Origin: Acidobacteriota bacterium
GTDB lineage: Bacteria > Acidobacteriota > UBA4820 > DSQY01
Length of the DNA stretch: 64,000 bases
Direction of reading: 5' to 3'
NCBI GenBank assembly: GCA_021813555.1
Contig: JAKAKG010000203.1
Location: 3,507 to 67,506, forward strand
Position numbers and translations under genes: made by a program. The stretch's first letter is position 1. Each line of letters begins with the position of its first letter. The notes under the pieces were generated by a model, which saw only the letters and a program-made list of their open reading frames with translations, was not told the origin of the DNA and searched no databases. Shown here in pieces: positions 18,762 to 51,415 of this stretch.

Positions 18762-18790
18762 GTGAGGAGTGAGGAGTGAGGAGTGAGGAG
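18762..18790. repeat. Tandem heptamer array (GTGAGGA)x4 between fpr stop and the GTG start of the recombinase gene
   Basis: Read directly from the sequence: gtgaggagtgaggagtgaggagtgaggag. The third unit supplies the GTG start of the downstream ORF. Confidence 0.9.
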
Positions 18791-19699
18791 AAGCGCCCGA
18801 ACGCCGAGGAAGGGAACGTCCCCTTTCCCAACGAATTGGCCCTGTTCCTGGATCACATGACCGTGGAACGGGGCCTCTCGCCCAGGTCGGTGGAAGCTTA
18901 CAGGAGCGACCTTCTCCGGTTTTTCGCCCACTGCAAGAAAGCACCGGCCGATGTGCGCCGGGAGGACGTGAGAGCGTTCATGGCGGGAGAACATTCCGCC
19001 AGGAGAGCTGCCTCCACGGCGGCCAGGCGCCTCGTGGCCATCCGTTCCTTTTATCGGTTTCTCATTCTGGAACGCAAGGTGCCGGCGGACCCCACGGAAA
19101 ACGTGGATCCCCCCAGGGCTCTCAAGCGGCTTCCCGGCTACCTCACGACGGAGGAGGTGGAGCGGCTCCTTGCCGTGCCCGATCCCTCCAGGCCTCTCGG
19201 GTTGCGCAACCGGGCCCTCCTGGAAGTCATGTACGCCACGGGAATCCGGGTCTCCGAGCTCACGGGCCTCACCCTCGATCGGACCAACGCCGAGGCGGGC
19301 TTCGTCCTGGTCATGGGCAAGGGAAGCAAGGAGCGCGTGGTGCCCTTGGGCGAGGTGGCCCAGGACTGGGTGGCGCGCTACCGGGCCGAAGCCAGGCCGC
19401 TGCTTCTCAAGGGCCGCTCCGCTCCGGCGCTCTTCGTGACGGCTCGCGGAGGGGGCATGACCCGGCAGATGGTGTGGATCATGATCACCTCAAGCGCCCG
19501 CGCCGCCGGCATCACCAAGCACCTGAGCCCGCACACCCTGAGGCACTCCTTCGCCACCCACCTGCTGGAGCACGGGGCAGACTTGCGCGCGGTCCAGATC
19601 CTCCTGGGCCACGCTGACATTTCAACGACCCAGATCTACACCCACCTGGAGCAGGAACGCCTCAAACGGATCTACAGGCAGTTCCATCCGCGGGCCTAG
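18776..19699 (+). CDS. Tyrosine site-specific recombinase, XerC/XerD family
   Basis: C-terminal catalytic motifs ([36 protein letters not shown]) are present. The GTG start lies inside the heptamer repeat. Confidence 0.85.
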
Positions 19700-19720
19700 C
19701 ACCGGGCCTCAGGCAGGTTG

Positions 19721-20065
19721 CTAGTGCATCCCCTGAGCCATGTTCTGCAGGAAGCTCATGCCGCCCCAGAACATGATCCAGATAATCTGGAGGCATCCCA
19801 CGATGAGGGAGAGAATACCCAAGATGATGCCCGCGACAGCGAAGCCTTTGCCTTTGGGAGAACTCTCCAGGCGCTTGATCTTGCCGTTCTCAATGAAACC
19901 CAGAACCAGCGCCGGGATGCCCGCGAAGATCCCGCAACAGCAGAACCCCAGAATCCCCAGCACCAAGGCGGCGATGGCCATGCCGCTGGCCTTGTCCGGG
20001 TAAGCAGGAACTGAAACCGCGTCATAGGTCATATTCTCGTCGCTCATCGCTCTCCCCTTCCCCAT
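19721..20065 (-). CDS. Small membrane protein, DUF4190-like
   Basis: 114 aa with two hydrophobic helices and a GIILGILSLIVG pattern. Confidence 0.5.
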   Translation of the reverse strand: MGKGRAMSDENMTYDAVSVPAYPDKASGMAIAALVLGILGFCCCGIFAGIPALVLGFIENGKIKRLESSPKGKGFAVAGIILGILSLIVGCLQIIWIMFWGGMSFLQNMAQGMH

Positions 20066-20100
20066 CCCTTATGAAATCCCTCTGGCACCATAAAAGGTGT

Positions 20101-20586
20101 TCAGCTTAACACCCGGACGCCCCAGACCGCCAGAATCAGCACGATGAGACTTAAGGTGACCACGAGGAAGGCGGGCTTGTCGAAGATCTCCATGGGCGGC
20201 CTGCGGCGCACCCACATCCACGGCAGGTAGGCCAACAGGAAGGCCCCAGCGAAAAAGACGGCGGCCCCCGCGGGCTGGACCTTCACGGCCTCCACGGGAT
20301 GGCCGTGCATCATCCAGGCGAAGGCCGTGGTCATGCCGCATGAGGGGCAGGGTTTGTGGAACATCTCATAGAACCCGCACGGAGGAAGGTGAAGCTGGGT
20401 GTGGGTGCCCAGGCCCGCCGGATCGGGATGAACCCACCCCGCCAGGGCAAACACCGTGATCAGCGCCGCAAGGACGACGCCGTAGGCCGCGTGCTGAGGG
20501 AGCGATAACCGTCCCGGCGCCTCACCTTTGGCTTCCGAAGCGAGCTGGCTCAGCGGGGCAGACTTCATGGAGACGGACCGTTTCAA
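20101..20586 (-). CDS. Membrane protein with CPxCG motif (DUF2752-like)
   Basis: 161 aa, polytopic, with a CPSCGMT motif. It overlaps the cheC stop by 4 nt, so it is probably co-transcribed. Confidence 0.5.
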   Translation of the reverse strand: MKRSVSMKSAPLSQLASEAKGEAPGRLSLPQHAAYGVVLAALITVFALAGWVHPDPAGLGTHTQLHLPPCGFYEMFHKPCPSCGMTTAFAWMMHGHPVEAVKVQPAGAAVFFAGAFLLAYLPWMWVRRRPPMEIFDKPAFLVVTLSLIVLILAVWGVRVLS

Positions 20587-21206
20587 CCCTTCTTCTGCAG
20601 CCTGTCGATGGCCGTGAGGATGGTCTCGATGGAGCCTGGATCGGGCAAGAGGCAGAAGTGGCCCGTGAAGGTTTTGTCCCTGGTGGCGAAGTCGGTCTGT
20701 ATGACGAGGGCCTGGTGGGTCACCTCCGCGAGTTCGATCAAGAGCAGGTCCACGACGGCTTGCGCCATGTCCATGGAGAACGCGGGTATGGAGGGGATGA
20801 GCGGAATTTTGAGCAGGGAGCCGATAGCCGTCAAGTAGGAGGACGTGAGGATGTTGCCCACTTCCTTCAGCGCTGAGATCTCCATATCCCCCAAAGGTCG
20901 CTTGGGGCCGTCCCCGTCAAAGAGGACGGTGAGGAGGTGCTCCGCCGACGTGCGGGACATGACCACGAGCATGTTGCCTCGGGACCCGCCGTAGACCCTG
21001 AAGAAGAGCCCCACCACCTCCTCTTCGAGTCCGCCCAGCCTGTGGGCCACTTCCGAAAAGGGCACCAGGTTCACCGCGGGAACCTCGAGGGTGATGACCC
21101 GCCGGGTCATCTGGTGGAGGGCCGTGACCGCGTGCCCGGCGCCGATGTTGCTGATCTCGCGGAGGGCATCCAGCTCCCGCTCTTCAATGGGGTGAAACGT
21201 GGCCAT
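20583..21206 (-). CDS. cheC: Chemotaxis phosphatase CheC family
   Basis: Two CheC-type motifs (EISNIGAGHA and LKEVGNILTSSY). Confidence 0.8.
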   Translation of the reverse strand: MATFHPIEERELDALREISNIGAGHAVTALHQMTRRVITLEVPAVNLVPFSEVAHRLGGLEEEVVGLFFRVYGGSRGNMLVVMSRTSAEHLLTVLFDGDGPKRPLGDMEISALKEVGNILTSSYLTAIGSLLKIPLIPSIPAFSMDMAQAVVDLLLIELAEVTHQALVIQTDFATRDKTFTGHFCLLPDPGSIETILTAIDRLQKKG

Positions 21207-21208
21207 GC

Positions 21209-23125
21209 CTAGTCTCCTTCTCTCCTGATGAGGACCCGGCCGTCAAGCACGTAGGCGATCTCTCCCGTGGCCAGAAGCGCCCCGCCCATCCACTCCGACA
21301 CCATCTCCAGGGGCGCGCCCCAGGGCATGATCACCACCCGCTCTCCCTGGTAGACCCGGCTCACGAGGAGCACCCGGTCGCCCTGGGGATGGACCAGGCG
21401 CAGTCCCGCGCCGTCCCGCCCCACCGGGCCCGCCCTCCATTCCAAGACGGGCAGGAGTTCCTCGCCCGCTTGAAGGAAGCGGCGGGTTCCGGACCAGACT
21501 AGGGGCGCGCTGGAGAGGGGATAAATGTGCTGGATCTGGGAGGCGGGGATGCCGTAGCGAACCTCGTCGTCCCATCCGAAAACAAGGACCCTGGTGAGGG
21601 TGGTGGCCGAAGGAATGACGAGGGTGAACCGGCTTCCCCGGCCCTTCTCACTGGCCATTTCCAGGTGGCCCCCCAAGGACTCCACCGCGGACCTCACCAC
21701 GTCGAGACCCACGCCGCGGCCGCTCACATCGGTCACTTCCTTCCGGGTGGAGAAGGCGGGCGCCGTGAGCAGGTCGAGGAGTTTGGTGTGGTCGAGCAGA
21801 GCCGCCTCATGGGGGGCGAAGAGACCCCGGTCCACGGCGGCCTGGCGGATCGCCTCCACATCGATGCCCCGTCCGTCGTCCGCGAAGGAGATGAGGAGGG
21901 CTTCCGACTCCCGGCGGATATCAAGGGTGAGCCGGCCGCCCTCCGCCTTCCCCTCGCGCCGCCGCTCTTCGGGCGCCTCCAGGCCGTGGTCCATGGCGTT
22001 GCGAACGAGGTGGTTGAGGGGATCCAGGAGCCGTTCCAGAAGGCCCCGGTCAACCCGTTCTTCGGCCCCCGAGACGGTGAGGCTCGCCGCCTTCCCGAGC
22101 CGGGAAGAGAGTTCCCTTGCGGTGCGCCCCAGGCGTTCGGCCAGGACTTCAAAGGAGACGAGCCTCATGGACAGGACGCGGTCGAAGAGGCGGTTGAGGT
22201 GGACCCGCTCCGACTCCAGCCAGAAGTGGTGACGGCGCTTTTCTTCGGGCCCCAGCGCGGCTTCGAACTGGTTCAGATGGTAGAGGAGGTCCGAGGCCTG
22301 CTCCCGCAAGGCGTCCAGGTCTTCTGGAGAGACCCGCATGCTCTGCACGAGGGTCCCCTCGGTCCCGGACCGCAGCGGCGGGGCGGAGGCCTGCTCCAAA
22401 TCCACGTCGGCCACGTCGGGGAGGCTTCGGAGGGAGAGGGCCAGATCTTTGAGGAGGGGTCCTGGCGGAACCAGGAACACGGCGGACCGGAGGCCCGCCT
22501 TCACGATGTGCTGGAGGTCGGGTTCCAGGACCGCCGACGGCTCCTCCGCCTTGACGCGCTCGGCCATGACCATGAAGCGCGCCGCCGGCAGGGGACACGA
22601 CGGGTCGATGGAGACCTTGATCCGGGCTCGGGGCCCGGGGGCGGGTGGGGGGCTGCCCGTAACCGGCCTTCCCGGACCCTCGACCGTGGCGGCCGCCTTG
22701 CTCGCCTCCGTGCCAGTCGGGCCGGCGGGGGGGAGTCCGGCCTCGGGCGAGGCAGAGGCCGCCCCCAAACCGGCCACGGACGCCTCAACCCTCGGGGCCA
22801 TGGCCCCGTCGGAGGACTGGCGCTCCACCGCGTCCATGCAGGCGTCCAATACGTCCACCGCATCCAAGGCCGCCGCCCGCTGCTGGGGCGTGGCCTCGGC
22901 GCCTTTCCTCCAATGGTCGAGAAGGGCTTCTAAATCGTGGGAGAGGCGGCTGGTGAGCTCGAACCCCATGGAGGCGGCCATTCCCTTGAGGGAGTGGGCA
23001 TGCCGGAAGAGGTCCGTGACGGCGTCCACGGAAACGGGCCCCTCCAGCGGGAGGCCACGCCGCAGGAGGCTCACGTGCTCTCGGCCCTCACTCAGGTAGA
23101 GTTCGAGGTACTTGGATAGGTCCAT
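21209..23125 (-). CDS. cheA: Chemotaxis histidine kinase CheA
   Basis: HPt domain (HSLKGMAASMGF), HATPase_c (GRGIDVE...GRGVGLDVV) and a C-terminal CheW-like domain. Confidence 0.9.
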   Translation of the reverse strand: MDLSKYLELYLSEGREHVSLLRRGLPLEGPVSVDAVTDLFRHAHSLKGMAASMGFELTSRLSHDLEALLDHWRKGAEATPQQRAAALDAVDVLDACMDAVERQSSDGAMAPRVEASVAGLGAASASPEAGLPPAGPTGTEASKAAATVEGPGRPVTGSPPPAPGPRARIKVSIDPSCPLPAARFMVMAERVKAEEPSAVLEPDLQHIVKAGLRSAVFLVPPGPLLKDLALSLRSLPDVADVDLEQASAPPLRSGTEGTLVQSMRVSPEDLDALREQASDLLYHLNQFEAALGPEEKRRHHFWLESERVHLNRLFDRVLSMRLVSFEVLAERLGRTARELSSRLGKAASLTVSGAEERVDRGLLERLLDPLNHLVRNAMDHGLEAPEERRREGKAEGGRLTLDIRRESEALLISFADDGRGIDVEAIRQAAVDRGLFAPHEAALLDHTKLLDLLTAPAFSTRKEVTDVSGRGVGLDVVRSAVESLGGHLEMASEKGRGSRFTLVIPSATTLTRVLVFGWDDEVRYGIPASQIQHIYPLSSAPLVWSGTRRFLQAGEELLPVLEWRAGPVGRDGAGLRLVHPQGDRVLLVSRVYQGERVVIMPWGAPLEMVSEWMGGALLATGEIAYVLDGRVLIRREGD

Positions 23126-23158
23126 CCCCGCCTCACCGGTGGCCGGGACCCGGCCCGA

Positions 23159-23527
23159 TCATCCCGCCACGACGGAGTCGAGGACCTTGAGCACCTTCTC
23201 CGCCGAGAAGGGCTTCACGATAAAGTCCTTGGCGCCTGCGGCGATGGACTCGATGACCAGGGCCTCCTGCCCGAGAGCCGAGCACATGACCACCCTCGCC
23301 TTCGGGCTCTGTTTGAGGATCTCCCTCGTGGCCTCGATTCCGTCCATCTGGGGCATGACGATGTCCATGGTCACCAGATCGGGGCTGAGGCTCCTGTACT
23401 GCTCCACCGCCTCCTGGCCGTTGGCCGCCTCACCCACCACTTCGTAGGCACCTGAGTTCACGAGGATGTCCCGGATCATGGCCCGCATGAACATGGCGTC
23501 GTCCACCACGAGTACCTTATGAGGCAT
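23159..23527 (-). CDS. cheY: Chemotaxis response regulator CheY
   Basis: 122-aa receiver domain (VLVVDD...D...K), standalone. Confidence 0.9.
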   Translation of the reverse strand: MPHKVLVVDDAMFMRAMIRDILVNSGAYEVVGEAANGQEAVEQYRSLSPDLVTMDIVMPQMDGIEATREILKQSPKARVVMCSALGQEALVIESIAAGAKDFIVKPFSAEKVLKVLDSVVAG

Positions 23528-23972
23528 GCTCCCTCCCTGTTGATTGGCTGCGAATGGCCAGGGCCATGGCCCTGGCCAGTTCGGCGGCCGCGGCCGCCGG
23601 ATTGATGACGCTGACCCACACCTCCTGCCAGGGGTACACCCCGGCCCAGATTCCTTCCGCCCCTTCCTCGCGCAGCGCGAGCTCGTGGAAGGGGATGACG
23701 CTCTCGATAGCCGGAACCGCGAAGCCCAAGTTCGGCGCGGGCGCCGCCAGCCGCAGCAAAAGCCCTTCCTGGAGGGATTCCTCCGCCTCCCCGATGAGCG
23801 TCGACGTGTTCACCACGGTGATGAGCCGCCCCCTCATGAACGCCGTGGCCATGAGGTGGGGGAAGGGTTGAGCCAGCGGGAAGAGGCGCGGCATGGCGGC
23901 GATCTCCTCGAGGTGGCCCGTGGCCCAGCCCACCCTGCGCGTACCGATCCTCGTGACGAGCAACTGCTGCAC
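23517..23972 (-). CDS. cheW: CheW-like coupling protein
   Basis: 151 aa sitting between cheY and the mcp gene with a CheW-like pattern. The assignment is weaker than for the other che genes. Confidence 0.6.
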   Translation of the reverse strand: MQQLLVTRIGTRRVGWATGHLEEIAAMPRLFPLAQPFPHLMATAFMRGRLITVVNTSTLIGEAEESLQEGLLLRLAAPAPNLGFAVPAIESVIPFHELALREEGAEGIWAGVYPWQEVWVSVINPAAAAAELARAMALAIRSQSTGREHAS

Positions 23973-24003
23973 CCTGGAGATCTCCTGGCGGGTTCCGGCC
24001 CCG

Positions 24004-30396: not shown

Positions 30397-30451
30397 GGCC
30401 GCCGACCTGCACCGTTCCGTAGGCGCCGCAGCGGCGCTCCACTTCGTGCCC

Positions 30452-33612: not shown

Positions 33613-34361
33613 GCCGCCCGGCCACGGCCCTTATTCTTCTCGCGCTCGCCGCCTTGCCGGCGGCGGCCCAACTGCGCGTGGAGCGGGACCGCAACGGCCG
33701 CATCGTCATCACCAACAAAGGGTCCGCCGCCGCCTCCAAGCTCGCGGCCCCCGAATCGGCCCAGTCCGTCCCCAAGGTCACGGCGGCCCAGCGCCAGGCC
33801 ATCCAGGGCAAACTCAAGGCGGCATGCTCCCGAACGGGGTTGGACTACAACCTCGTGACGGCCCTCGTACACGCCGAGTCGGGGTTCCAATCCAATATCA
33901 TCTCCCGCAAGGGCGCCATCGGCCTCATGCAACTTCTCCCCGAAACGGGAAGGCGCTTCGGCTGCAGCGATCCTTGGGACTTGGACGAGAACATCACGGG
34001 GGGGACCAATTTTCTGGCCTACTTGAGGGACCTCTTCGGGGGCGATGTTCCCCTCATGCTGGCCGCCTACAACGCGGGCGAGAACGCCGTGCAGAAATAC
34101 AGCAACAAGATTCCGCCCTACGCTGAAACGGTCCGTTACGTCTTCGCCATCCTGGCCGACTACGGCCGGCCGGCGCTGGTGGAGGCCGCCAAGGCCAAGC
34201 TCGCCTCTCCCTCTGACTACAACCGGTTCTACGTTGCCCGGCGCAATGAGAAGCCCGTCTTCAGGACCTACTACATGTACTTCGAAAAGGGCGTCCGCAC
34301 CATCGTGGACTATCCCCCCAGCGGAGTCACTTTTGTCCCCATCGTCTATAAGGACGAGTGA
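33609..34361 (+). CDS. Soluble lytic transglycosylase domain protein
   Basis: Signal peptide plus SLT motifs (ESGFQSNIISRKGAIGLMQL, AAYNAGENAV). Confidence 0.85.
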   Translation: MSRPATALILLALAALPAAAQLRVERDRNGRIVITNKGSAAASKLAAPESAQSVPKVTAAQRQAIQGKLKAACSRTGLDYNLVTALVHAESGFQSNIISRKGAIGLMQLLPETGRRFGCSDPWDLDENITGGTNFLAYLRDLFGGDVPLMLAAYNAGENAVQKYSNKIPPYAETVRYVFAILADYGRPALVEAAKAKLASPSDYNRFYVARRNEKPVFRTYYMYFEKGVRTIVDYPPSGVTFVPIVYKDE

Positions 34362-34370
34362 GGGTCCGGG

Positions 34371-34394
34371 ATGAGGAGATGAGGAGATGAGGGG
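34371..34394. repeat. Tandem octamer array (ATGAGGAG)x3
   Basis: Read directly from the sequence: atgaggagatgaggagatgagggg, 10 nt after the SLT stop. Confidence 0.9.
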
Positions 34395-34465
34395 AAAGGG
34401 ACACCATGGCGGGCGACGAGAGAGCGGTCCCTCATGTCCGCGTCCCCCCATCCCCTCGTCTCGTC

Positions 34466-35578
34466 CTACTCTTCCAAGTCCTCGCGTTCCTGAGAGTTGA
34501 GCCGCGCCAAGGCGGAGCGGTAGGGCCAATCCTCGATGAAGCCCTCCTCCCGAAGCACTTGAAGCTTGGCACGGTGGTACTCCCAGTAGTCGTCCAGATG
34601 AATTTCATCCAGGCGATCGGCGAGGTGAACCAGGCGGGCGAACCAGCCGAGGGCCTCGCGGCGCGGCGCCCTGCGCCACCAGGGGAGGTAAGGAGTTCGG
34701 GCCGGCTGGGGACCCGCCGCCACTTCGACCGCCGCCCCCGTCAAGGCCGCGGCGCCAAGGGCAAAGACAAGGAACGCGCCGGCCGATCCCCAGATCCACG
34801 GTGTCAACGCCTCGCCGCCCCCCCGCGCCGCTTCGGCGGCAAGGGCGAGGCTGATGGCCCCCGCGCCCAAGGCCGGCCCGATGAAGACCCACGGGGCGCG
34901 CCAGGCCAGCCGGATGGGAGGTTCCAGGGAGGCCAGGGAAAAGAACATCCGGCTGGATCGGCCCAGCGGGCCTCTGCTTTCCAGGACCACCCGGTCGTAG
35001 AGAAATACACAGGTCCACAGGCTCATCGTTCCCCTGATGGCCAGGCGGCCCTGATCGAGGCCCTCGAATACGTTCTGTAGGGCGAACCGGTGTGCCGTCA
35101 CCCGGAGGTTCAGCTCTCCGAGGAAGTCCTCGAAGGAGCGCCCATCCAGTCCGTGAAACGCGGCGATCTCGTATCCGTCGTAGTCGAATACTTTGACCGT
35201 CCTGAGGCGTGCCTTCCAAACGAGGAGGGCCCAGGCGGCGCCCAAAACCGCCGCGTTAAGCCCCGTGAGGGCCTCGGATGGGCCAAGAAGGAAGGCTCCC
35301 GCGGCCCACGCCAGCGTGAGGATCGTGAGGATGGCCAGCTGCCACACCGGCAGGCTCTGGCTGCTGTAAGTGTCCCATATCTCCCCGTAGGGAATGATCT
35401 GCCTGTGGGTGGGCACGGAGGAGGTAAACTCCTCCCTCAACAAGCCCCTCCCGTCGAGGGTGAAGCGCACCAGGGTTCCAGCCCAGGGCCGCTCTTCGTG
35501 AACCAGAGACGCATCACGGGACACCGGGGTTGGCCTCCATGATGGTGGCCACGAGGGCCCGTGCAAAATCCCTGGCAA
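34466..35578 (-). CDS. Hypothetical polytopic membrane protein
   Basis: 370-aa ORF with several hydrophobic segments and no recognisable motif. It overlaps lptE by 65 nt, so the start is uncertain. Confidence 0.45.
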   Translation of the reverse strand: MPGILHGPSWPPSWRPTPVSRDASLVHEERPWAGTLVRFTLDGRGLLREEFTSSVPTHRQIIPYGEIWDTYSSQSLPVWQLAILTILTLAWAAGAFLLGPSEALTGLNAAVLGAAWALLVWKARLRTVKVFDYDGYEIAAFHGLDGRSFEDFLGELNLRVTAHRFALQNVFEGLDQGRLAIRGTMSLWTCVFLYDRVVLESRGPLGRSSRMFFSLASLEPPIRLAWRAPWVFIGPALGAGAISLALAAEAARGGGEALTPWIWGSAGAFLVFALGAAALTGAAVEVAAGPQPARTPYLPWWRRAPRREALGWFARLVHLADRLDEIHLDDYWEYHRAKLQVLREEGFIEDWPYRSALARLNSQEREDLEE

Positions 35579-36041
35579 CCACGTCGTAGGCCACCACCTC
35601 TTCGCTGATGTAGTTGCCGGGCGTCGAGGAGCGCTCGTAGACTTCGCTGAACCGGTATCCCTGGGACTCGAAGAGGACCTTCCCGTCGCGGCTGGCCAGA
35701 CGGACTTTCGCCGTCATGGTCACCTGGTACCGGTTGGCGCGGCCCGCCGAGTCGTAGGAAAGAGGCGCCACGCCGTAGCCCGTGATAGCTCCCGTAAGGA
35801 CCGCGTCAGCACCCTCCTTGGAAGACTGAACCTTCACGCGGGCGCGCTGGGCCAGCTCGCGGGTCACGGCCTCGGTAACCCGCTGGTCGAGCTGCAGGAC
35901 CGGCACTTGCCGCTCGAAGGGCAGGACGGCCACCACCTTCACCGACGGCGGCAGGGCGCCTCCCGTACCGAGCAAGTGATAGCCGCAAGCGGTGAAGAGA
36001 AGCATCACGGCCAGAGATGCGACGGCGAATCGAGCCCTCAT
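35514..36041 (-). CDS. lptE: LPS-assembly lipoprotein LptE (RlpB) family
   Basis: Lipobox (LLFTACG), 175 aa, and a position immediately downstream of leuS, the conserved leuS-lptE arrangement. Confidence 0.7.
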   Translation of the reverse strand: MRARFAVASLAVMLLFTACGYHLLGTGGALPPSVKVVAVLPFERQVPVLQLDQRVTEAVTRELAQRARVKVQSSKEGADAVLTGAITGYGVAPLSYDSAGRANRYQVTMTAKVRLASRDGKVLFESQGYRFSEVYERSSTPGNYISEEVVAYDVVARDFARALVATIMEANPGVP

Positions 36042-36067
36042 CTCCTCATCTCCTCATCTCGTCATCC
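36039..36067. repeat. Tandem octamer array (GATGAGGA)x4 on minus strand filling the leuS-lptE intergenic gap and supplying the lptE ATG
   Basis: The reverse complement reads gatgacgagatgaggagatgaggagatgagggc. The last unit contains the lptE start codon. Confidence 0.9.
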
Positions 36068-36072
36068 CTGTC

Positions 36073-39807: not shown

Positions 39808-39829
39808 AACAAGGAGAAGGAGGCGCCCC

Positions 39830-41491
39830 ATGGCGCAGGTGCAAGCCAGCCGCGGAGAGCTTTGGAAGAAATACTACGACATCAGCCAGGACCAGCTCCA
39901 GGAGCTGGACCGCCAGATCGAGGCACTCGGGCAGGCGCCCTGGGAACAAGGTCCCCTGAGATCGGTCCAGCGCGTATTCCACAACTTCTCCGGTTCGGGC
40001 GCCTTGTACTCCGCTCCCCAGGTTAGCGCCCTGGGCGGGGAAGGCGAATACATGTGCTCGAGCATCCTTCTGGCGGGGCGGGCCATCGGTGAGGGTGAGC
40101 TCCAGCAGATCGAAAGCCTCGTGCGCCGAATCCGAGCCGAGTTCCAGAACCTCATGAACGCCGCGGCCAAAGCGTCCGCGCGTCCGGCCAAACCCGCGCG
40201 GGGCATTCCCCTCCTGTTCCTCCTCGCCCCCGAGACTCCCGAAACCAAGGCCCTTGCGGAGTACCTGAGCAAGCGGCGCGTCCAGGTGGAAATCCTGCCC
40301 ACCCTGGCCGTAGCCGAGCGGAGGCTGGACGCGGGCCTGCCCGATCTCGTGGCCGTCAGCCTCAAACTGGACGGCGGGTCGGCCTACGATTTCGTGCGAA
40401 GCCTGAGGATCATCGAAGGGGAGCCTTCCATCCCCGTTCTTCTCCTTGGCGAGAGCCAGCGGTTCCTGGACAAGGTCGAGGCCATCCACTGCGGCGCCGA
40501 TGGATTCGTGGCGGCCCCTCCCGACCCCGCCACCGTTCTCAAAAAGTTCAAGGCCGTTATGGCCAAGCACAAGGGGGTGGCCTCGAAGATCCTGGTGGTC
40601 GAGGACGACCCCGCCCAGGCGCGCTTCGTGGAGGAGTGCCTCGTGACGGGCGGGTATCAGGTCAGCGTCTGCCAGGACCCGTCTCTTTTTGAGGCCGACC
40701 TCTACGCGTTCCACCCCGCCCTGGTCTTGATGGACGTTCTCCTTCCGGGCGCCAGCGGGTACGACCTGGTGCGATTCATGCGGCAGGAGGAGGGCTTCGC
40801 GGCGATCCCCGTCATCTTCATCACGACCGAGGGGCAGCGCCGCAGCCAGATCCTCGCCGCCGAAGCGGGGGGCGACGACTTCCTGGCCAAGCCCGTCACG
40901 GCGGAGGATCTTCTCTCCATCGTTCGGTCAAGGCTGGCAAGGCACAGGAGCCTGCAGGACCTGATGGATCACGACGACCTGACGGGACTACTGGCTCACA
41001 CGCCCTTCCTGCGCGAGGCTCGCCTCTGCCTGACCCGTTACAGCCGTCGGAAAATCGCTTACGCCGCGGTTTTGTTCCGGGTGGATCGCCTGGATGAATA
41101 CGGGGCTCGTTACGGCGCCAAGGCCGGGGACACACTCGTGGTGGGCCTCGCCAAGTTTCTCCAGCGGAAAATTCGCCAGACCGACGTCATGGGCCGATAC
41201 GGAGACCAAGAACTCGCGGTGGTCCTGGAACATCTCTCGGAGACCGACGCCCTGAGGCTCATCCAGCGCCTGCAGCAGGAGTTCCAATCCATCGAACACC
41301 CCCTCGGGGGGGATCGCAACCTCCGGGCCACGTTCAGCGCCGGCATCGCCATGACCGGCCCCGACATGAAGACCCTCAAGGACTGGCTCGATCGCGCGGG
41401 CGCGGCCCTCCAAGACGCCATTCGGCAGGGCGGGAACCGGACGATCTTTTTCGGGCGAGCCGGCGGCGAGGCTACTTCCCCATCACCCTGA
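39830..41491 (+). CDS. Response regulator with tandem receiver domains and degenerate GGDEF domain (active-site motif replaced by GDQEL)
   Basis: 553 aa containing two REC-like domains (ILVVEDD...D...K) and a C-terminal GGDEF fold that ends in RYGDQELAV instead of GGDEF/GGEEF. Confidence 0.8.
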   Translation: MAQVQASRGELWKKYYDISQDQLQELDRQIEALGQAPWEQGPLRSVQRVFHNFSGSGALYSAPQVSALGGEGEYMCSSILLAGRAIGEGELQQIESLVRRIRAEFQNLMNAAAKASARPAKPARGIPLLFLLAPETPETKALAEYLSKRRVQVEILPTLAVAERRLDAGLPDLVAVSLKLDGGSAYDFVRSLRIIEGEPSIPVLLLGESQRFLDKVEAIHCGADGFVAAPPDPATVLKKFKAVMAKHKGVASKILVVEDDPAQARFVEECLVTGGYQVSVCQDPSLFEADLYAFHPALVLMDVLLPGASGYDLVRFMRQEEGFAAIPVIFITTEGQRRSQILAAEAGGDDFLAKPVTAEDLLSIVRSRLARHRSLQDLMDHDDLTGLLAHTPFLREARLCLTRYSRRKIAYAAVLFRVDRLDEYGARYGAKAGDTLVVGLAKFLQRKIRQTDVMGRYGDQELAVVLEHLSETDALRLIQRLQQEFQSIEHPLGGDRNLRATFSAGIAMTGPDMKTLKDWLDRAGAALQDAIRQGGNRTIFFGRAGGEATSPSP

Positions 41492-42461
41492 GCAGGTGCC
41501 TCTCGACGATGGCCCAGGGCGGCCCGGGGTCCCCCTTCAAGGCCAAATCCAGCTCGAAGAGGGCACCCAAGGTTTTCCGGACGCGCGCCTCGGGCCACTT
41601 GGACGCGACGCCGAGGAGCTTCTGGGCCGGGTACGGATGGTTGAACCCCAGGCTCCTGAAGGGAATGTCCCGCCGCTCCGCCCCTCGCGCTTCCAGACCG
41701 TGCATGAGCAACAGGGACCTGAGCTGCTTGGCGAGCATGCCCACGAAGAGGAGGGGCACCGAATCGGGATCCTGGGCGATACGCTGCAGGAGGTCGAGAA
41801 AGGGCCTCACCTCGCCCTTGAGGAAAGCATCCTGCAAATCCCATTGCTGAGGCGTCCCGCCGGCGCCTAAAAGGGCCTCCACGTCCTCCGCTTCAAGGCG
41901 CTTCTCCTCGTTCCTGTATAGGCACAAAAGGTCCAAGGCGGAGACGAGCCTCCCCACGTCTCCGCAGGACCATTCCTCCAGGGCCGTAGCGGCCGCCGGG
42001 GCGATGGAGAAGCCTTCGGCGCGCAGGCGCTTGGCCACGTACTCGCGGCCGCCGCGAGGCGTGCACGATCGGGTGGGAACCTTGTCCATGAGGGCTTTCC
42101 AACGCGCCGGGACCTTCTTATCGGAGAGGTCCCCTACCACTTCGACGAGCAGGGCGGTGGATGTCGCGGGGTTGTCCAGATATCGGCCGAGGGCCTTGAT
42201 CAGATCGTCGGAGGCCGATTCGGCCTGCCTGAGGCGAACCACCTGGCGCTCGCTCCACATGGGAAGGGTATTGAGCTCGACGCCGAGCTGCCCCGGATCG
42301 AGACCCGCCGCCGAAAGATTGGTCGCTCCGTCCTCACCGCCCCACCGCTCGGCCCATCCGCGGGAGACTTCATCCAGGAAGCGGCCGTCCTCCGCCCATA
42401 TGAGAAGGTTCTGCGGATAGCTCCCCGCCCCCGCCTTCTCCTTCTTCTCCTCACTCCGCAC
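41472..42461 (-). CDS. holA: DNA polymerase III delta subunit-like (HolA)
   Basis: 329 aa with a delta-subunit-like pattern. The GTG start lies inside the heptamer array. The assignment is moderate. Confidence 0.6.
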   Translation of the reverse strand: MRSEEKKEKAGAGSYPQNLLIWAEDGRFLDEVSRGWAERWGGEDGATNLSAAGLDPGQLGVELNTLPMWSERQVVRLRQAESASDDLIKALGRYLDNPATSTALLVEVVGDLSDKKVPARWKALMDKVPTRSCTPRGGREYVAKRLRAEGFSIAPAAATALEEWSCGDVGRLVSALDLLCLYRNEEKRLEAEDVEALLGAGGTPQQWDLQDAFLKGEVRPFLDLLQRIAQDPDSVPLLFVGMLAKQLRSLLLMHGLEARGAERRDIPFRSLGFNHPYPAQKLLGVASKWPEARVRKTLGALFELDLALKGDPGPPWAIVERHLLRVMGK

Positions 42462-42538
42462 TCCTCGCTCCTTTTTCTTTTCCCTTTTCCCTTTTCACTT
42501 CTCACTTTTCACTTTTTACTTCTTACTTTTCACTCCTC
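42462..42538. repeat. Heptamer array (~11 units GTGARAA / GGGAAAA / GAGTGAG on minus strand) between oppC stop and holA start
   Basis: The reverse complement reads ggaggagtgaaaagtaagaagtaaaaagtgaaaagtgagaagtgaaaagggaaaagggaaaagaaaaaggagcgaggag. The oppC TGA stop and the holA GTG start both lie within repeat units. Confidence 0.9.
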
Positions 42539-43615: not shown

Positions 43616-43617
43616 CC

Positions 43618-44667: not shown

Positions 44668-44796
44668 GGGCAGACCCGGAGCGAGCGAAACGCGAAGAGA
44701 GATACTCGGCGAGCCGGAGGGCGATGGGCGGCCTTCATCTCCGCTGTCATCGCGGGTTCACTGGCTCCCTGCTTCGTTGAACCATGAGCTCCTTCA

Positions 44797-46530
44797 CTAC
44801 CGCAAGCCCTTCGGCACCCACCACTCCTTGACGGACGGATACCAGGTAAACAGCCCATACCCCGCCCGGCTCACCCGGACGTTCTGAAACTTGCTCCTCA
44901 CGGCCACTATCTGGCTCCCCATGAAGAGGTAGGTGTGAGGCTGATCTTGGGCCACCAGTTCGTGGATGCGCCAGAAGGCCCGCTGGCGAGCCGCCCGGTC
45001 GAAGGTTCGCTGCTCCGTCTCGATGAGCCGGTCTACCTCGGGACTCATGTAGGACACGTCGTTCTGTCCCGTCCCCATGCCATCGGGAAGGAGCTTGGCC
45101 TGAGAAGAGTGGAGGAGGCCATAAGGGTCTGGATCGTCTCCCAGGCTCCAACCCGAGAGGTAGGCCTGAAACTGGTGCCTTTGGGTCCTATCCAGGAAAA
45201 CGCTCCACTCCACTTTGCGGATGGCCATGGCGACGCCTATCCGCCTCAAGTCTTGCTGGAAAATCTCGAGGAAGCGGGAGAACTGGTCCACCTCCGCAGG
45301 CACCAGGCACTCGAAAGCCAGAGGCTTGCCGTCCTTTTCCCGGACCCCGTCCCCCTTCCGGTCCTTCCACCCAGCCGCATCCAGAAGCGCGGCGGCTCTG
45401 GCCGGATCGTAGGGGTAAGGCTTGATGGCGGGGTTGCTCTCCCAGCTTCCGGGATAAAACGGGCCGGAGCACGTGATGCCATGTCCGTCCAAAACCTTAT
45501 CCACGATGCCCTGGCGGTTTGTGGCATAGGTCATGGCCTGCCGGACCCGCCTGTCCCTGAAAAAGGGGTTGGAGCCATCCATGTTCCAGGCCAAGTACAT
45601 AAACTGACGCCCGTAGTACTCGAACACCGTGGCTCCCTTGAGAAGCGCTTGATCCGCCTTGAGCTGGCGCCACTGTTCGGTGGAGATGGCCGTGAGATCA
45701 AGCTGGCCCGTTTGGTAGGCCGCGAGCTGGGTCTGGCTCTGGGGAATGATTTTGAACACCATCGTATCCAGGTGTGGCCGCCCTCCGAAATAGCGGGGAT
45801 TTGCCTTCAAGACGATGCGCTCCCCGCGCTTCCACTCCGCGAAACGGAAGGGCCCCGTGCCCACTGGGGGCACGTCCGCGGACCCCTTATTGAAGTCCTG
45901 GCTCCGGCCCTTGGCGTAGGCGTATACGTGCCGTGGCATGATGTGAAGGTTCCAGGCCATGAGCCCCGGCGCGTAAGGCTCCTTCCAGGTCACCTTCACC
46001 GTGAAGTCATTCATCCTTTCGACCTTGGCCACGGCTTCGAAGCTCGGCCGCTTGTTGATGGCGTCTACGGCGGGATCCATGCACGCCTCATAGGTAAAGA
46101 GCACGTCATCGGCCGTGAAAGGCTTGCCATCATGCCATGTCACGCCCTTGCGCAGGTGGAAGGTGGTGGTTGTGTTGTCGGGGGAGTTTTCCCAGGATTC
46201 CGCCAGGACGCCCACGGGGTTCATGTCCTGGTCCACGTCCACGAGCGGGTCGTAGATCCACTTGTAGACCAAGTAGGACACCATGTCGTTGGCGATCACC
46301 GGATTGAGGGTGACGGCGTCGGCGGGGAGCGCGCGGGTGAACGTGCCGCCGTCTTCCGGGGCCTCGGCCTCCAATCCGGGGAGAAACGCCATGGTGCGCT
46401 CGGCTGGAGACGGGGTGCCTGCCCAGAACGGCGCCGCAAGCCCGCCGGCCAGCGTCAGAACCAGGGCCGCGGCCCACGGCCCTCCCGACGCCTCCCGCTC
46501 CTTCCTGCTCTCTGAAGGTCCCAAGCCCAC
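44797..46530 (-). CDS. ABC transporter substrate-binding protein, family 5 (oligopeptide/dipeptide/nickel type)
   Basis: The track ORF 44797..47421 is trimmed. The likely start is the GTG at 46530, giving a signal peptide ([26 protein letters not shown]) and an SBP_bac_5-like body. The start is uncertain. Confidence 0.8.
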
Positions 46531-46725
46531 CCCCCCACGTTTGCTTTCAAGTTTAGGCCCGTCGTGCCCCCCCCGGCAAGGGCGCGAGCGAGGCCCACAC
46601 GGCGCCGGTGTCACGCCCCTTTCATTGACAGGTGCCGTTCCCTGTGCCATACTTTTGTTCTTTTTAGAGGCACCGCGGCATCCGATCCGCCACCACGTAA
46701 GCGTCCACGTCGTCAGGGGGTCAAA

Positions 46726-47904
46726 GTGAAAGTTCACGAATACCAGGCCAAGGAAATCCTGCAACGGTACCAGGTGGCCGTCCCCAAGGGCAAGGTCGCC
46801 TTCTCCGCCGAGCAGGCGTACGCCATCGCCAAGGAACTGGGCGGCACCGTCGTGGTGAAAGCACAGATCCACGCTGGCGGGCGGGGCAAGGGCACCTTCA
46901 CGGACGGCTTCAAGGGCGGCGTGAAGCTGGCCAAGACCGCCGACGAGGCGGCCGAGTACGCGAAGAAAATGCTCGGCAACACCCTCGTCACGCATCAGAC
47001 GGGATCCGCGGGCAAGCAGGTCCAGAAAATCTACGTGACCGGCGCCAGCTCCATCGCCAAGGAGTATTACCTCGGCATCGTGCTGGACCGGTCCAAGCAG
47101 ATGAACGTGATCATGTCCTCCACCGAGGGGGGCGTCGAGATCGAGAAGGTGGCCGCCGAGGCCCCCGAGAAGATTCTCAAAACCTGGATCGATCCGCTCC
47201 TGGGCATCCAGCCCTTCCACGCCCGCGAAATCGCCTTTGGCCTCGGCTTCACGGGCGAAGCCTTCAAGGAGTGCGTGAAGCTCGTTACGGCGCTGTACAA
47301 AGCCCACGAAGAGACGGACTCGACTCTTACTGAAATCAATCCTCTCATCCTCACGGAAGACGGCCACGTGCTGGCCCTCGACGCGAAGATGAACTTCGAC
47401 GACAACGCCCTCTACCGCCACCAGGACATCATGGAGATGCGGGACTTCACGGAGGAGGACCCGCTGGAAGTGGAGGCGAGCAAGTTCGACCTGAACTACA
47501 TCAAGCTCGACGGCTCCATCGGGTGCATGGTGAACGGCGCGGGCTTGGCCATGGCCACCATGGACGTCATCAAGCTCGAGGGGGGCGAACCGGCCAACTT
47601 CTTGGACGTGGGGGGCGGCGCCACCACGGAGCGCGTGAAGAACGCCTTCCGTATCCTCCTCTCCGACAAGAACGTGAAGGCCGTCCTCATCAACATTTTC
47701 GGCGGCATCGTCCGCTGCGACGTGATCGCCGAGGGCGTCATCGCCGCGGCCAAGGAGATCGGAGTCAATCTGCCCGTGGTGGTGCGCCTCCAGGGCACGA
47801 ACGTGGACAAGGGCAAGGCCATGCTCACGGAATCGGGCCTCAAATTCGCCGTGGCCGACAACCTGAAGCAGGCGGCCCAGATGGCCGTCGCATCCGTGAA
47901 GTGA
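46726..47904 (+). CDS. sucC: Succinyl-CoA synthetase beta subunit
   Basis: GTG start giving [12 protein letters not shown]... with ATP-grasp and ligase-CoA domains. Confidence 0.9.
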
Positions 47905-47913
47905 GGGGGGGCC

Positions 47914-48789
<876 letters not shown>

Positions 48790-48905
48790 CGGACGGACGC
48801 GCGATCAACAACCTGCGGGGGCAGGCGGAAGGGTCCGCTTGCCCCCGTTGCACTTAGCACCAACCCGAGGGGCACGATGCCCCGGATGCAGAGGGAGCAA
48901 AGATC

Positions 48906-49217
48906 ATGAGCACGCCGACGGAGCCGCGCAGCGGGGTTCGGGAGACGGGCGAGGCCGTAGGGTCCCCCCGGCTCGTGCAGATCAAGAAAGAGAAGGTCGC
49001 CACCTCGGGGCACGGCCAGAAGGTGAAGAAGGACGTCCTCATCACCGTGATCTCCGGCCATTGCAAAGGAGCCCTCTGCAACATCTGCGTGGCCTATTGC
49101 CCCGAAAAGGTCCTGGCCATGGGCTTTAAGACGGTGGAAGTGGTGAACGTGGACGCCTGCACCAAGTGTATGCTCTGCGAGATCCGCTGCCCCGATTTCG
49201 CGATTTTCGTGGACTGA
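48906..49217 (+). CDS. korD: 4Fe-4S ferredoxin, 2-oxoacid:ferredoxin oxidoreductase delta subunit-like
   Basis: Two Cys clusters, including CTKCMLCEIRCP. It sits immediately upstream of korA. Confidence 0.75.
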   Translation: MSTPTEPRSGVRETGEAVGSPRLVQIKKEKVATSGHGQKVKKDVLITVISGHCKGALCNICVAYCPEKVLAMGFKTVEVVNVDACTKCMLCEIRCPDFAIFVD

Positions 49218-49325
49218 TGGAACGTGACCGGGTATCAGGCGACGGGGCCATCTTGAGGCGTTGATCACACGATCACATGATCCGTTGATTACCTGATCAC
49301 GTTGACCTTTCCGAAAGGGAACCCG

Positions 49326-50483
49326 ATGAGCGCAGAAGCTACCGAAAAGAAAGCCCCGGTGATCAAATTCCTCGCCGGCAACGAAGCCTGCATGGAGGGA
49401 GCCCTCGCGGCGGGCTGCCGGTTCTTCGCGGGCTACCCCATCTCGCCCTCCTCCGAAATCGCCGAGAAGATGTCGGGGCGCCTGCCCAAACTAGGCGGCA
49501 AGTTCATCCAGATGGAGGATGAAATCGCCTCCATGGGCGCCATCATCGGCGCCAGCCTGGCCGGGGCCAAGTCCATGACGGCCACGTCGGGTCCGGGGTT
49601 TTCCCTCATGCAGGAAAACATCGGCTACGCCATGATGGCCGAAGTGCCCTGCGTCGTGGTCAACGTCATGCGCGGCGGCCCTTCCACGGGCAACCCCACG
49701 GGGCCGAGCCAGTCGGACGTCATGCAGTGCCGCTGGGGCACGCACGGCGACCACCCCGCCATCGTGCTGTCCCCCAACTCCATCCGCGAAGCCTTTGACA
49801 CTACCGTCCAGTGCTTCAACTTCGCCGAACAGTTCAGGACGTGCGTGGTGCTGGCCATGGACGAGATCGTGGCCCACATGCGAGAGAAAATCGTCATCCC
49901 GGCGAAGGAAGACATCAAGATCGTCAACCGGAAGAAGCCCAACCTCAAGCCCGGCGATCCCTACAAGCCTTACGAGGCGGATGCCAGCCTCATTCCACCC
50001 ATGATGAACTTCGGCGAGGGCTTCAGGTACCACGTGACGGGTCTGGACCACGACGCCACGGGCTTCCCCTCGGGCGCCCCCGACAACCAGGAGATCCTCC
50101 ACCGGAGGCTCGTGGACAAAGTAGAGATGCACAAGGATGAGCTTTTCCTCTTCGAAAACCATCGCACGGAGGACGCGGAGGTCCTGGTGGTTGCCTACGG
50201 GTCCACCTCCCGCTCGGCCAAACGCGCCGTGGAGGAAGCCCGCGCGCAGGGCATCAAGGCGGGGCTCTTCAGGCCCATCACCCTCTTCCCCATCCCCGAG
50301 AAGCAGATCGCCCTGGCCGCCAGCCACGCCAAAAAGGTCGTAGTCCCCGAAATGAACCTCGGACAGTACCGCCTGGAGGTCGAACGCATCCTCGGGCCGG
50401 CCGTTCCCGTCGTCGGGGTCCACCGTGTGAACGGTGAGCCCATCGCCCCGTCCCTGATCCTGTCCGCCATCGTGGGAGGCTGA
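49326..50483 (+). CDS. korA: 2-oxoglutarate/2-oxoacid:ferredoxin oxidoreductase alpha subunit
   Basis: ATG at 49326 with an aaggga SD. The product has the KorA/PorA pattern (FFAGYPISPSSEI...TATSGPGFSLMQE). Confidence 0.9.
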   Translation: MSAEATEKKAPVIKFLAGNEACMEGALAAGCRFFAGYPISPSSEIAEKMSGRLPKLGGKFIQMEDEIASMGAIIGASLAGAKSMTATSGPGFSLMQENIGYAMMAEVPCVVVNVMRGGPSTGNPTGPSQSDVMQCRWGTHGDHPAIVLSPNSIREAFDTTVQCFNFAEQFRTCVVLAMDEIVAHMREKIVIPAKEDIKIVNRKKPNLKPGDPYKPYEADASLIPPMMNFGEGFRYHVTGLDHDATGFPSGAPDNQEILHRRLVDKVEMHKDELFLFENHRTEDAEVLVVAYGSTSRSAKRAVEEARAQGIKAGLFRPITLFPIPEKQIALAASHAKKVVVPEMNLGQYRLEVERILGPAVPVVGVHRVNGEPIAPSLILSAIVGG

Positions 50484-50486
50484 GCC

Positions 50487-51299
50487 ATGTCGATGGACTA
50501 TTTCCAATACCTGCGCAAAGAGCGCATGCCGCACATCTGGTGCCCCGGCTGCGGCCACGGCACCATCATGAAATCCATCCTGCGGGCCCTGGACAAGCTC
50601 AAGTGGGCCAAGGATGACGTGGTGGTGGTTTCTGGAATCGGCTGCAGCAGCAGAACACCGGGCTACCTGGACTTCAACACCCTTCACACGACCCACGGCC
50701 GCGCCCTCTCCTTCGCCCAGGGTGTCAAAGTGGCCAACCCCAACCTCAAGGTGATCGTCATCTCCGGAGACGGAGACGCCATGGCCATCGGAGGCAACCA
50801 CTTCATTCACGCCTGCCGGCGCAACATGGACATCACCCTCATCGTCTTCAACAACAACATCTACGGGATGACCGGCGGACAGGCTTCCCCCACCACCTTC
50901 ACGGGCTCCAAGGGCACCACCGCCCCCTACGGCGCCATCGAGCAGCCCTTCGACGTGTGCAACATGGCCCAGGCCTCGGGCGCCACCTACGTGGCCCGCG
51001 CCCTGGACATCGACGCCGTCGCCATGGACCGCGTCATCCTGTCAGCCCTGCAGAACAAGGGATTCTCCGTCGTGGACGCCTGGTCTCAGTGCACCACCTA
51101 CTTCGGCCGCCAGAACAAATGGGGCGACGCCTCCGAGATGATGGACCGGTACAAGGAAATGACCTACAACGTCCGCCTCGCCGAGAAAATGAGCCCCGAA
51201 GAGAAAGCCGGGAAATACCCCGTGGGGATGCTCTTCCAGACCTCCCGCCCGGAATGGTGCGAGGAGTACGGCAAGCTGATTGAGAGAGTGAGCAAGTGA
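50487..51299 (+). CDS. korB: 2-oxoacid:ferredoxin oxidoreductase beta subunit (TPP-binding)
   Basis: Motifs CPGCGHG, GIGCSS and GDGD in the TPP-binding region. Confidence 0.9.
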   Translation: MSMDYFQYLRKERMPHIWCPGCGHGTIMKSILRALDKLKWAKDDVVVVSGIGCSSRTPGYLDFNTLHTTHGRALSFAQGVKVANPNLKVIVISGDGDAMAIGGNHFIHACRRNMDITLIVFNNNIYGMTGGQASPTTFTGSKGTTAPYGAIEQPFDVCNMAQASGATYVARALDIDAVAMDRVILSALQNKGFSVVDAWSQCTTYFGRQNKWGDASEMMDRYKEMTYNVRLAEKMSPEEKAGKYPVGMLFQTSRPEWCEEYGKLIERVSK

Positions 51300-51415
51300 G
51301 GAAGTGAGGAGTGAGGAGTAAATAGTGAAAAGTGAAAAGTAAAAAGCGAGCCCTCAACAGCGGGCCGCGTTCCTTCCCACTCTTCACTTTTCACTTTTAA
51401 CTTTTCTTTTAAAGG
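51296..51415. repeat. Inverted heptamer arrays (GTGAGGA x3, GTGAAAA x2, GTAAAAA on plus; TCTTCAC, TTTTCAC, TTTTAAC downstream) forming a long imperfect hairpin with T-rich 3' arm, between korB and korC
   Basis: Read directly from the sequence. The korB TGA stop lies within the first heptamer, and the downstream arm is the reverse complement of the GTGAAAA units. Confidence 0.85.

Follow-up and report, generated by a model that had tools for sequence, protein, structure and literature searches.

Five gene junctions in a 64,000-nucleotide stretch of Acidobacteriota DNA (assembly GCA_021813555.1, contig JAKAKG010000203.1, positions 3,507 to 67,506; hereafter the window) carry tandem arrays of 7- or 8-nucleotide (nt) units. 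We estimate at about 60% the probability that these arrays are repeats of the LSSR/STRR class, seeded from junctions of a stop codon with a Shine-Dalgarno (SD) motif and co-opted as translation-initiation regions. Arrays of 7- and 8-nt units are unusually dense in the lineage of the window, whose place in Acidobacteriota agrees with the annotation of a member of the 90%-identity KorB cluster (Acidobacteriota bacterium) and of XerD relatives (Acidobacteria). They would arise and resize by replication slippage, with inverted copies produced by strand switching, and would persist in non-coding spacers only, since repeats with a period of 7 or 8 nt would put any reading frame out of phase. The purine-rich units would have been seeded from stop-SD junctions. 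By its sequence each unit is self-contained: it offers an SD at 6-8 nt from the second GTG or ATG that follows, and TGA is present in each of the three frames, always overlapping a start (NTGA). The first unit thus stops the incoming gene in whatever frame it arrives, the last units would serve to initiate translation of the next gene, and internal units can be gained or lost without harm. The arrays may also affect expression.

Tandem arrays at five gene junctions

Arrays were detected with Tandem Repeats Finder (TRF), and gene context was taken from Pfam and from the gene calls accompanying independent assemblies. Tandem GTGAGGA, GTGAAAA or GATGAGGA arrays were seen by TRF at all five places named in the initial annotation of the window, i.e. 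the fpr–xerD, leuS–lptE, oppC–holA and korB–korC junctions and a convergent junction behind an SLT gene (Table 1). Six period-7/8 arrays with a TRF score of at least 44 were observed (scores of the six, 44-74) compared with 0.005 in 200 order-3 Markov simulations of the window, and at a score of at least 30 the numbers were 12 observed and 0.99 ± 1.04 simulated. The arrays are real and far above chance expectation. An assembly artefact was ruled out by identical arrays in independent assemblies and by conservation across species.

Intergenic DNA amounts to 7.6% of the window and contains all five loci, and the association with gene boundaries that had been claimed for the arrays was borne out. 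At three junctions the array is nearly the entire spacer (fpr–xerD, 21 nt; leuS–lptE, 31 nt; oppC–holA, 68 nt). The same units recur within the 64 kb, GTGAGGA at three loci, GATGAGGA at two and GTGAAAA at two, and with a GC content of 35-46% the arrays form islands in a genome of 65% GC, a value that is also the G+C content of the window. At 5/5 loci the gene directly upstream has the purine-rich strand as its sense strand; since the arrays occur on both strands (plus at 18.7, 34.3 and 51.3 kb, minus at 36 and 42 kb), this bias tracks transcription and not the chromosome strand. A G-quadruplex reading was ruled out as well, the units being without G3 tracts: G runs do not exceed GG except in two GGGAAAA units, short of four or more runs of three or more G.

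Table 1. Coordinates of the arrays and of the parts of the korB–korC hairpin (positions in the window)
Feature	Position	Strand	Content
fpr–xerD array	18761-18790	+	AGTGAGG x4.3, 100% matches (TRF)
Convergent-junction array	34370-34393	+	GATGAGGA x3 (TRF 34370-34392, x2.9)
leuS–lptE array	36036-36072	-	GGGATGAC-(GAGATGAG)x3; TRF 36036-36066, GAGATGAG x3.9; fills the 31-nt spacer
oppC–holA start-side array	42447-42472	-	GGAGCGA GGAGTGC GGAGTGA GGAG, GTGAGGA-type (TRF)
oppC–holA stop-side array	42473-42534	-	About 9 GTGAAAA-type units; TRF span 42477-42534
korB–korC stop array	51287-51317	+	(A)GTGAGGA x3, continuing the last korB codons GAG AGA GTG AGC AAG TGA
korB–korC hairpin, 5' arm	51318-51346	+	GTAAATA GTGAAAA GTGAAAA GTAAAAA (GTGAAAA-type x4; TRF 51287-51346)
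korB–korC hairpin, apical region	51347-51375	+	Small G+C-rich stem (GCGAGCCC...GGGCCGC)
korB–korC hairpin, 3' arm	51376-51410	+	Inverted array CTCTTCAC TTTTCAC TTTTAAC TTTTC; TRF CACTTTT x4.1, 51378-51406

Translation signals embedded in the arrays

The GTGAGGA and GATGAGGA arrays hold an SD, a start and a stop at once within the unit, in agreement with the initial annotation, and the coordinates place the stops of korB and oppC as well as the SD and start of xerD, holA and lptE inside arrays. Downstream of an FAD/NAD oxidoreductase gene (fpr-like), which ends on a TAG at 18752-18754, the first unit supplies the SD AGGAG (18765-18769), the second a 6-nt spacer, the third the GTG start of xerD (18776) and the fourth codons 3-5 of a product opening MRSEEK. 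For holA, on the minus strand, the layout is an SD AGGAG, a 6-nt spacer CGAGGA and a GTG start at 42461-42459, no other start codon being found upstream of the conserved PQNLLIWA motif; its product also begins MRSEEK, and XerD and HolA are indeed the two unrelated proteins that had been said to share this N-terminus. The lptE ATG (36041-36039, minus strand) falls inside the final octamer and opens a typical lipoprotein signal peptide, MRARFAVASLAVMLLFTAC. On the stop side, the TGA of the OppC-type permease (42532-42530, minus strand) lies within the first unit of an array composed of GTGAAAA, GTAAGAA, GTAAAAA, GTGAGAA and GGGAAAA units, the two oppC–holA arrays together counting about 12 units; this spacer is 91% purine with 35% GC, and its leader RNA is predicted to be unstructured (-10 kcal/mol). 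The korB TGA (51297-51299) is likewise in the first unit of its array, and the korC ATG stands at 51449.

Forward-oriented repeats therefore sit directly upstream of the start and overlap the ribosome-binding site (RBS) at 3/5 loci (xerD, lptE and holA), and at these genes the array would provide the actual RBS and start codon. The array SDs are found at -10 to -14, which is a normal distance because ordinary genes of the window (leuS, TPR, GGDEF and korB) have SD-like motifs at -10 to -15. Read from their own starts, the heptamers form the mini-ORF (ORF, open reading frame) GTG AGG AGT GAG GAG TGA, with a stop overlapping the GTG two units on, and the octamers form ATG AGG AGA TGA, with a stop overlapping the next ATG. 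Owing to these stops only the last or penultimate unit can open a long ORF, and for this reason XerD and HolA both begin MRSEEK. The initial annotation had also supposed that the number of units alters the frame and the SD spacing. This was not the case: with the stop placed in the first unit and the SD and start in the last ones, frame and spacing stay the same whatever the number of internal units, and in natural variants with a difference of 1-3 units both flanking ORFs are intact.

The convergent-junction array begins 9 nt past the SLT stop (TGA 34359-34361), within a 104-nt spacer. The gene supposed to follow it (ORF 34406-35080) is called in no assembly, and the junction is convergent with a minus-strand gene of 352 amino acids (aa). 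The 34406-35080 ORF (plus strand, 224 aa) is without a Pfam match, and so is the 352-aa gene (34466-35524, minus strand), whose start overlaps the lptE end.

Proposed seeding of the purine-rich units

In L215, a relative whose KorB is 85% identical, the korB–korC junction has no array and reads AAG TGA GGAG CGGAACC ATG, i.e. the korB stop followed by the korC SD, spelling GTGAGGAG. The KorB C-terminus, ERV[SR]K before the stop, is conserved; in L216 the codons at the korB end, GTG AGG AAG TGA, amount to 1.5 units, and the junction holds the array (AGTGAGGA)x6.9. In the window, sucC and the SLT gene likewise have their stops in a GTGAGG context. GTGAAAA differs from GTGAGGA by G-to-A changes only, and the intermediates GTGAGAA and GTAAGAA are present in one array (oppC–holA). 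To judge from these junctions, the GTGAGGA and GATGAGGA arrays would be tandem duplications of an operon-junction motif consisting of a TGA stop and an SD GGAG, with or without the start.

Copy-number variation between species and strains

The arrays were compared with those of eight other conspecific assemblies (99.2-100% identity, different samples), in which no indel was found in any array covered. The sister species (L219-L223, including GCA_021833665.1) is 95% identical at the nucleotide level. Its oppC–holA array is 20 nt shorter (three GTGAAAA-type units fewer), its leuS–lptE array 8 nt longer (one octamer more) and its korB–korC array net 7 nt longer (one GTTAAAA unit more), and these array indels are the sole indels of at least 6 nt across 21 kb. 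The start-adjacent units are conserved there and both flanking ORFs are intact, while the convergent-junction array is equal in length and degenerate (5 substitutions in 24 nt). In a further pair of strains, L208 and L209, 99.89% identical over 12 kb, the single indel is one GGCAACN unit at an oppB–oppC array. This array spans 8795-8827 in L208 and 8789-8827 in L209, and OppC is called with 404 aa in one strain and with 371 aa in the other.

The expected difference in unit number was accordingly seen between sister species (1-3 units) and not between the conspecific assemblies, and the proposed slippage-prone module stands on the evolutionary scale, through the sister-species indels and the L208/L209 pair, and falls as phase variation. 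The one-unit step between two strains as close as L208 and L209, together with the 1-3 units between sister species, would suit contingency loci in which slippage in unit number switches the flanking genes on or off. We nevertheless consider such loci very improbable, since the arrays are identical in the eight same-species assemblies from different samples, frame and SD spacing are independent of unit number, every natural length variant leaves both ORFs intact, and the flanking genes are essential housekeeping genes, not surface or virulence genes. The arrays are slippage-labile over evolutionary time and are not frame-shifting phase switches.

Conservation and turnover of units in more distant relatives

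The family had been described as genome-specific. This description had to be given up, because relatives carry arrays at orthologous junctions and at least 119 contigs, spread over many phyla, contain (GTGAGGA)x3. At oppC–holA of relatives with about 70% HolA identity, L205 has (GTGAAAA)x5 + (CCCCTGT)x4 + (GTGAGGA)x4 and L206 has GTGAGGA GCGAGGA GTGAGGA GCGAGGA, whereas L203 shows a 10-nt spacer with a degenerate remnant only. The HolA start is the third of four units in L205 and L206, as in the window, and several HolA relatives have the N-termini MRSEE-K, MRNDE-K or MRGDENK. For XerD, where the comparison concerned the protein N-terminus MRSEE alone and not the junction DNA, MRSEE[KGRP] was found down to about 77% identity, so that MRSEE-type N-termini in HolA and XerD relatives persist to about 70-77% identity. 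At holA, the four-unit cassette of SD, spacer, GTG and codons is conserved across species, and the protein just after the cassette varies.

At leuS–lptE the units turn over, from GAGATGAG in the window to GACTGGGG followed by CTCCCCG(G) in L205 and to CAGCTCTC x13.8 in L207. The convergent junction of L207 has TAGGGGAC x16.5 and CTCACAA x6.4; only array content was taken from L207 (ERZ25039503 contig_37181), a long-read contig with frameshifted genes. Its opp, leuS and other genes are fragmented in a way that resembles frameshift errors, its gene calls are unreliable and its arrays are long. Other L205 junctions hold CGAGCCAA, CGAGTCAA, TTCTCTCG x25, GAGCCAAC, AGCTGTT and ATAGCCA x8. L205 has arrays in nearly every spacer (764-1112, 8246-8367, 10832-11016); TTCTCTCG x25 is preceded by the CGAGCCAA and CGAGTCAA arrays, which are partly complementary to it, and the GACTGGGG arrays are G-rich and those of CTCCCCG(G) after them C-rich. 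LptE is called with 253 aa in L205 and with 175 aa in the species of the window, and the L205 start is probably over-extended through the arrays.

Over 200 kb of the lineage, 28/36 short-period arrays have a period of 7 or 8. All 16 arrays examined in relatives lie between co-directional genes; 13 are at or outside called gene boundaries, intergenic DNA representing 6.7%, and the other three are within the first 152 nt of genes with seemingly over-extended starts. The content in translation signals is not a general property, as it had been presented, because relatives hold units without SD, start or stop at the same junctions. The general phenomenon is one of dense 7-/8-nt arrays in operon spacers, whatever the unit, and the SD, start and stop content is unit-specific.

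These comparisons bear on a frame-independent translational-coupling ladder, in which the ribosome that has finished the upstream gene, on meeting a TGA that overlaps an SD-preceded GTG or ATG, would re-initiate from unit to unit on the mini-ORFs (MRSEE followed by a stop in heptamers, MRR followed by a stop in octamers) and would reach the real gene through the last unit. Overlap of the mini-ORF stops with later starts, arrays that bridge the whole stop-start spacer at fpr–xerD, leuS–lptE and oppC–holA, and the sense orientation of the purine strand at every locus would fit such a ladder, but GTGAAAA units have no SD and the relatives have units lacking start, stop or SD at the same junctions. 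Furthermore, one array is at a convergent junction, with nothing there to couple, korC is separated from the korB–korC array by 130 nt and a hairpin, and L215 couples korB and korC through an 11-nt spacer devoid of any array. We regard the ladder as unlikely.

A predicted hairpin at the korB–korC junction

For the korB–korC spacer a long hairpin is predicted, with the GTGAAAA array as one arm and its inverted copy as the other. Its energy is -44.9 kcal/mol (z = -3.6), which no shuffled version of the spacer matched in 200 trials. In relatives, z was -3.9 in L219 (sister species), -5.0 in L217, with GTGAAAR/TTTTSAC arms, and -3.9 in L216, with GTGAGGAA-type arms. The predicted hairpin is thus conserved across four species though the arm sequences differ. 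Among the five loci a clear palindromic stem-loop is seen at this junction: the array at 34370 is partly complementary to 34429-34454 and its fold is weak (z = -1.4), and the other three loci have none. The REP-like character suggested for the family as a whole can hence be retained for korB–korC, with its conserved hairpin, and not for the four loci without an inverted partner.

In line with a multicopy element, the contigs of Logan short-read assemblies stop at some of these places. L212 ends at 36067, the edge of the leuS–lptE array, and starts at 49325, in the fdx–korA spacer with its GATCAC repeat, and L214 starts at 42519, within the GTGAAAA array. Such ends are expected if the array k-mers are multicopy in the genome or metagenome, and these breaks hint at a genome-wide family.

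Mobile palindromic elements of the REP/BIME or MITE type, spread by a transposase, would account for dispersed extragenic arrays at operon junctions, for the imperfect korB–korC palindrome with its strong predicted hairpin in four species, and for the three contig ends, which fit multicopy k-mers. However, an inverted partner is missing at four of the five loci, and no terminal repeats, target duplications or conserved flanks were found; no RAYT (IS200/IS605-like) or other transposase gene was seen beside the arrays when the window proteins were scanned with Pfam. The hairpin keeps its position while its arm sequences differ between species, which argues that the korB–korC element was inherited, not inserted. 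Altogether a mobile origin is hardly probable.

Distribution of the units in other genomes

In a scan of one genome per species, (GTGAGGA)x3 turned up in 119 contigs or more, the longest arrays having about 24 units. The matches listed include Planctomycetota, Cyanobacteria, Campylobacterota, Desulfuromonadales, Gemmatimonadota, Acidobacteriota, Bacteroidales, Clostridia and others, with Nostoc, Lyngbya, Crinalium, Stigonema and others among the genera, and none of the 119 loci listed is related to the window. GTGAAAA arrays, by contrast, were found in the window's lineage only, among about 2 Mb of DNA. A LeuS-based search of metagenome contigs brought relatives at 50-55% identity only, which serve as a loose control and are not orthologues. 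Period-7 arrays of many units are common in some of these contigs (L123-L202; 11 arrays in L148, 7 in L132 and 6 in L150), so that dense heptamer arrays recur in environmental bacteria beyond the lineage of the window. A text search of the literature for heptamer or octamer repeats in Acidobacteria returned none.

Several points weigh against our reading of the arrays as slippage-born repeats co-opted for translation initiation. The analysis covered a single 64-kb window out of the whole genome, and the sense-strand bias is drawn from five loci. That the start codons in the arrays are the ones used is read from the DNA, and xerD has an alternative start, a TTG at 18836, from which one relative is called. 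At the 119 listed loci, analysed with crude ORF flanks, (GTGAGGA)n has no preference for the sense orientation or for an upstream position (30 versus 32 co-directional), and long ORFs start beside it about equally on the antisense and sense sides. A role in translation initiation is therefore not general to the unit, and GTGAGGA as a general RBS element was dropped. Finally, two junctions retain the AT-rich GTGAAAA unit, even between species whose HolA proteins share only 71% identity; this conservation is poorly explained by neutral slippage alone, and a sequence-specific binding partner could be involved.

Such a partner would make the arrays a multivalent RNA or DNA platform for a trans-acting factor. 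GGA units could be bound by a CsrA-like protein, A-rich ones by ribosomal protein S1, Hfq or a cold-shock protein, and the AT-rich DNA by a nucleoid protein, and the genes concerned would form a post-transcriptional or transcriptional regulon. The recurrence of identical units at unrelated junctions points this way, as do the persistence of GTGAAAA at two junctions despite 29% HolA divergence, its confinement to one lineage and the low GC content of the arrays; a like proposal exists for the TAACTGA repeats (PMC4679880). No candidate binding protein was identified, though, unit number varies freely between sister species, unrelated units substitute at orthologous junctions, and the genes served (xerD, lptE, holA, kor) share no functional theme. 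This explanation has in our opinion a low probability. The same is to be said of a bolder form, in which the tandem SD-start-stop cassettes would be a selected device, acting either as a frame-independent re-initiation ladder or as a multivalent platform for a GGA- or A-rich-binding regulator, and setting the translation of the downstream cistron. The conserved (GTGAGGA)4 would then be a shared super-RBS giving unrelated proteins their MRSEE across species, and the variable GTGAAAA tract would tune output; we hold this to be doubtful.

Other features of the window

The 126-nt spacer at 11183-11308 is 69% purine and has a weak CACCAAGA x2.8 repeat at 11229-11250, which may be a decayed array of another unit. 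A distinct 8-nt repeat with a palindromic core occupies the fdx–korA spacer at 49255-49305 (GTTGATCACACGATCACATGATCCGTTGATTACCTGATCACGTTGACC; TRF GATCACAC x2.5), and the same junction in L216 (2643-2675) has TGATCACC x4.1. By its sequence the fdx–korA repeat resembles a conserved series of TGATCA half-sites, a candidate regulator-binding site upstream of korA.

The holA gene (minus strand) and a GGDEF response-regulator gene (plus strand, 39830-41491) converge with a 20-nt overlap at 41472-41491, which is retained in the conspecific assemblies and in the sister species. Downstream of korC-ndk, at about 52546-54800, a set of ScmC-like, PqqD and radical-SAM-SPASM genes, kept in L215 and L217, has the appearance of a cluster for peptide maturation (RiPP-type). 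Neither Rfam nor tRNA scans gave a match anywhere in the window, and promoter and terminator consensus scans of 33-52.5 kb showed no enrichment and no site accounting for the arrays.

Significance and comparison with known systems

Among the long simple repeats of bacteria, those with heptamer units are the commonest, and their function is still untested; the lineage of the window offers an unusually readable case. The unit is built from recognisable translation signals, its likely ancestral stop and SD junction is visible in the array-less L215, and one can trace across species how the arrays grew and how they were co-opted as start sites. On the practical side, gene callers are inconsistent on starts at array junctions, as with LptE (253 versus 175 aa), and short-read assemblies break at arrays. 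If the tandem arrangement proved to be selected, it would represent a new mechanism by which operons couple or tune the translation of their genes.

Enterobacterial intercistronic REP hairpins are stem-loops between cistrons of one operon. The korB–korC element resembles them as a predicted stable stem-loop between two cistrons of one operon and, by analogy, could protect the upstream mRNA or modulate read-through. Unlike them, its arms are tandem heptamers without REP consensus, no RAYT gene was seen among the window proteins scanned, and only one locus out of five is palindromic.

The TAACTGA repeats of marine Beggiatoaceae are forward-oriented and stand just upstream of start codons, a translational role having been proposed and left untested (MacGregor 2015, PMC4679880). 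Both systems precede unrelated, often essential genes and overlap the RBS region, but TAACTGA has no complementarity to 16S rRNA and no start codon, whereas the window units are GTGAGGA, GATGAGGA and GTGAAAA, of which the first two are themselves a canonical SD with a GTG or ATG, the protein beginning inside the array. The GGGNATC/GGGGAYT repeats of Xanthomonas and Nostoc lie between aligned ORFs, prefer four units and are transcribed (Rehm et al. 2015, PMC4692102). Here too heptamers are found between aligned ORFs near stops and starts, with a GGGGACT-type unit at leuS–lptE of L205. GGGNATC, however, has G3-4 tracts and forms G-quadruplexes, in contrast to GTGAGGA and GTGAAAA with GG at most.

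In Geobacter metallireducens, families of 4-5 tandem heptamers are present at tens of loci, some as inverted pairs (Aklujkar et al. 2009, PMC2700814). Its opposite-strand pairs at variable distance resemble the inverted arrays of korB–korC, but its units are GGGACCG, MTYCTGA and TCTCCGTS, some are intragenic, and they were read as global-regulator binding sites (PMC2700814). Heptamer-derived satellites are described in Chloroflexus and other genera (PMC6749651).

The closest likeness is to the LSSR5-11 class and the cyanobacterial STRR heptamers. According to the summary of Mrazek et al. (2007) given in PMC4679880, no long simple repeats are more abundant in prokaryotes than the heptanucleotides, which are found above all in non-pathogens with large genomes and for which polymerase slippage was proposed as the cause. 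Like LSSR5-11 and STRR repeats, the arrays of the window are tandem 7-nt units iterated beyond chance, confined to non-coding DNA and dispersed over several loci, their copy number differs between relatives, and heptamers are the commonest class. Unlike them, the Acidobacteriota arrays carry an SD, a start and a stop, and some consist of a short, conserved cassette of four units that includes the opening codons of the following gene.

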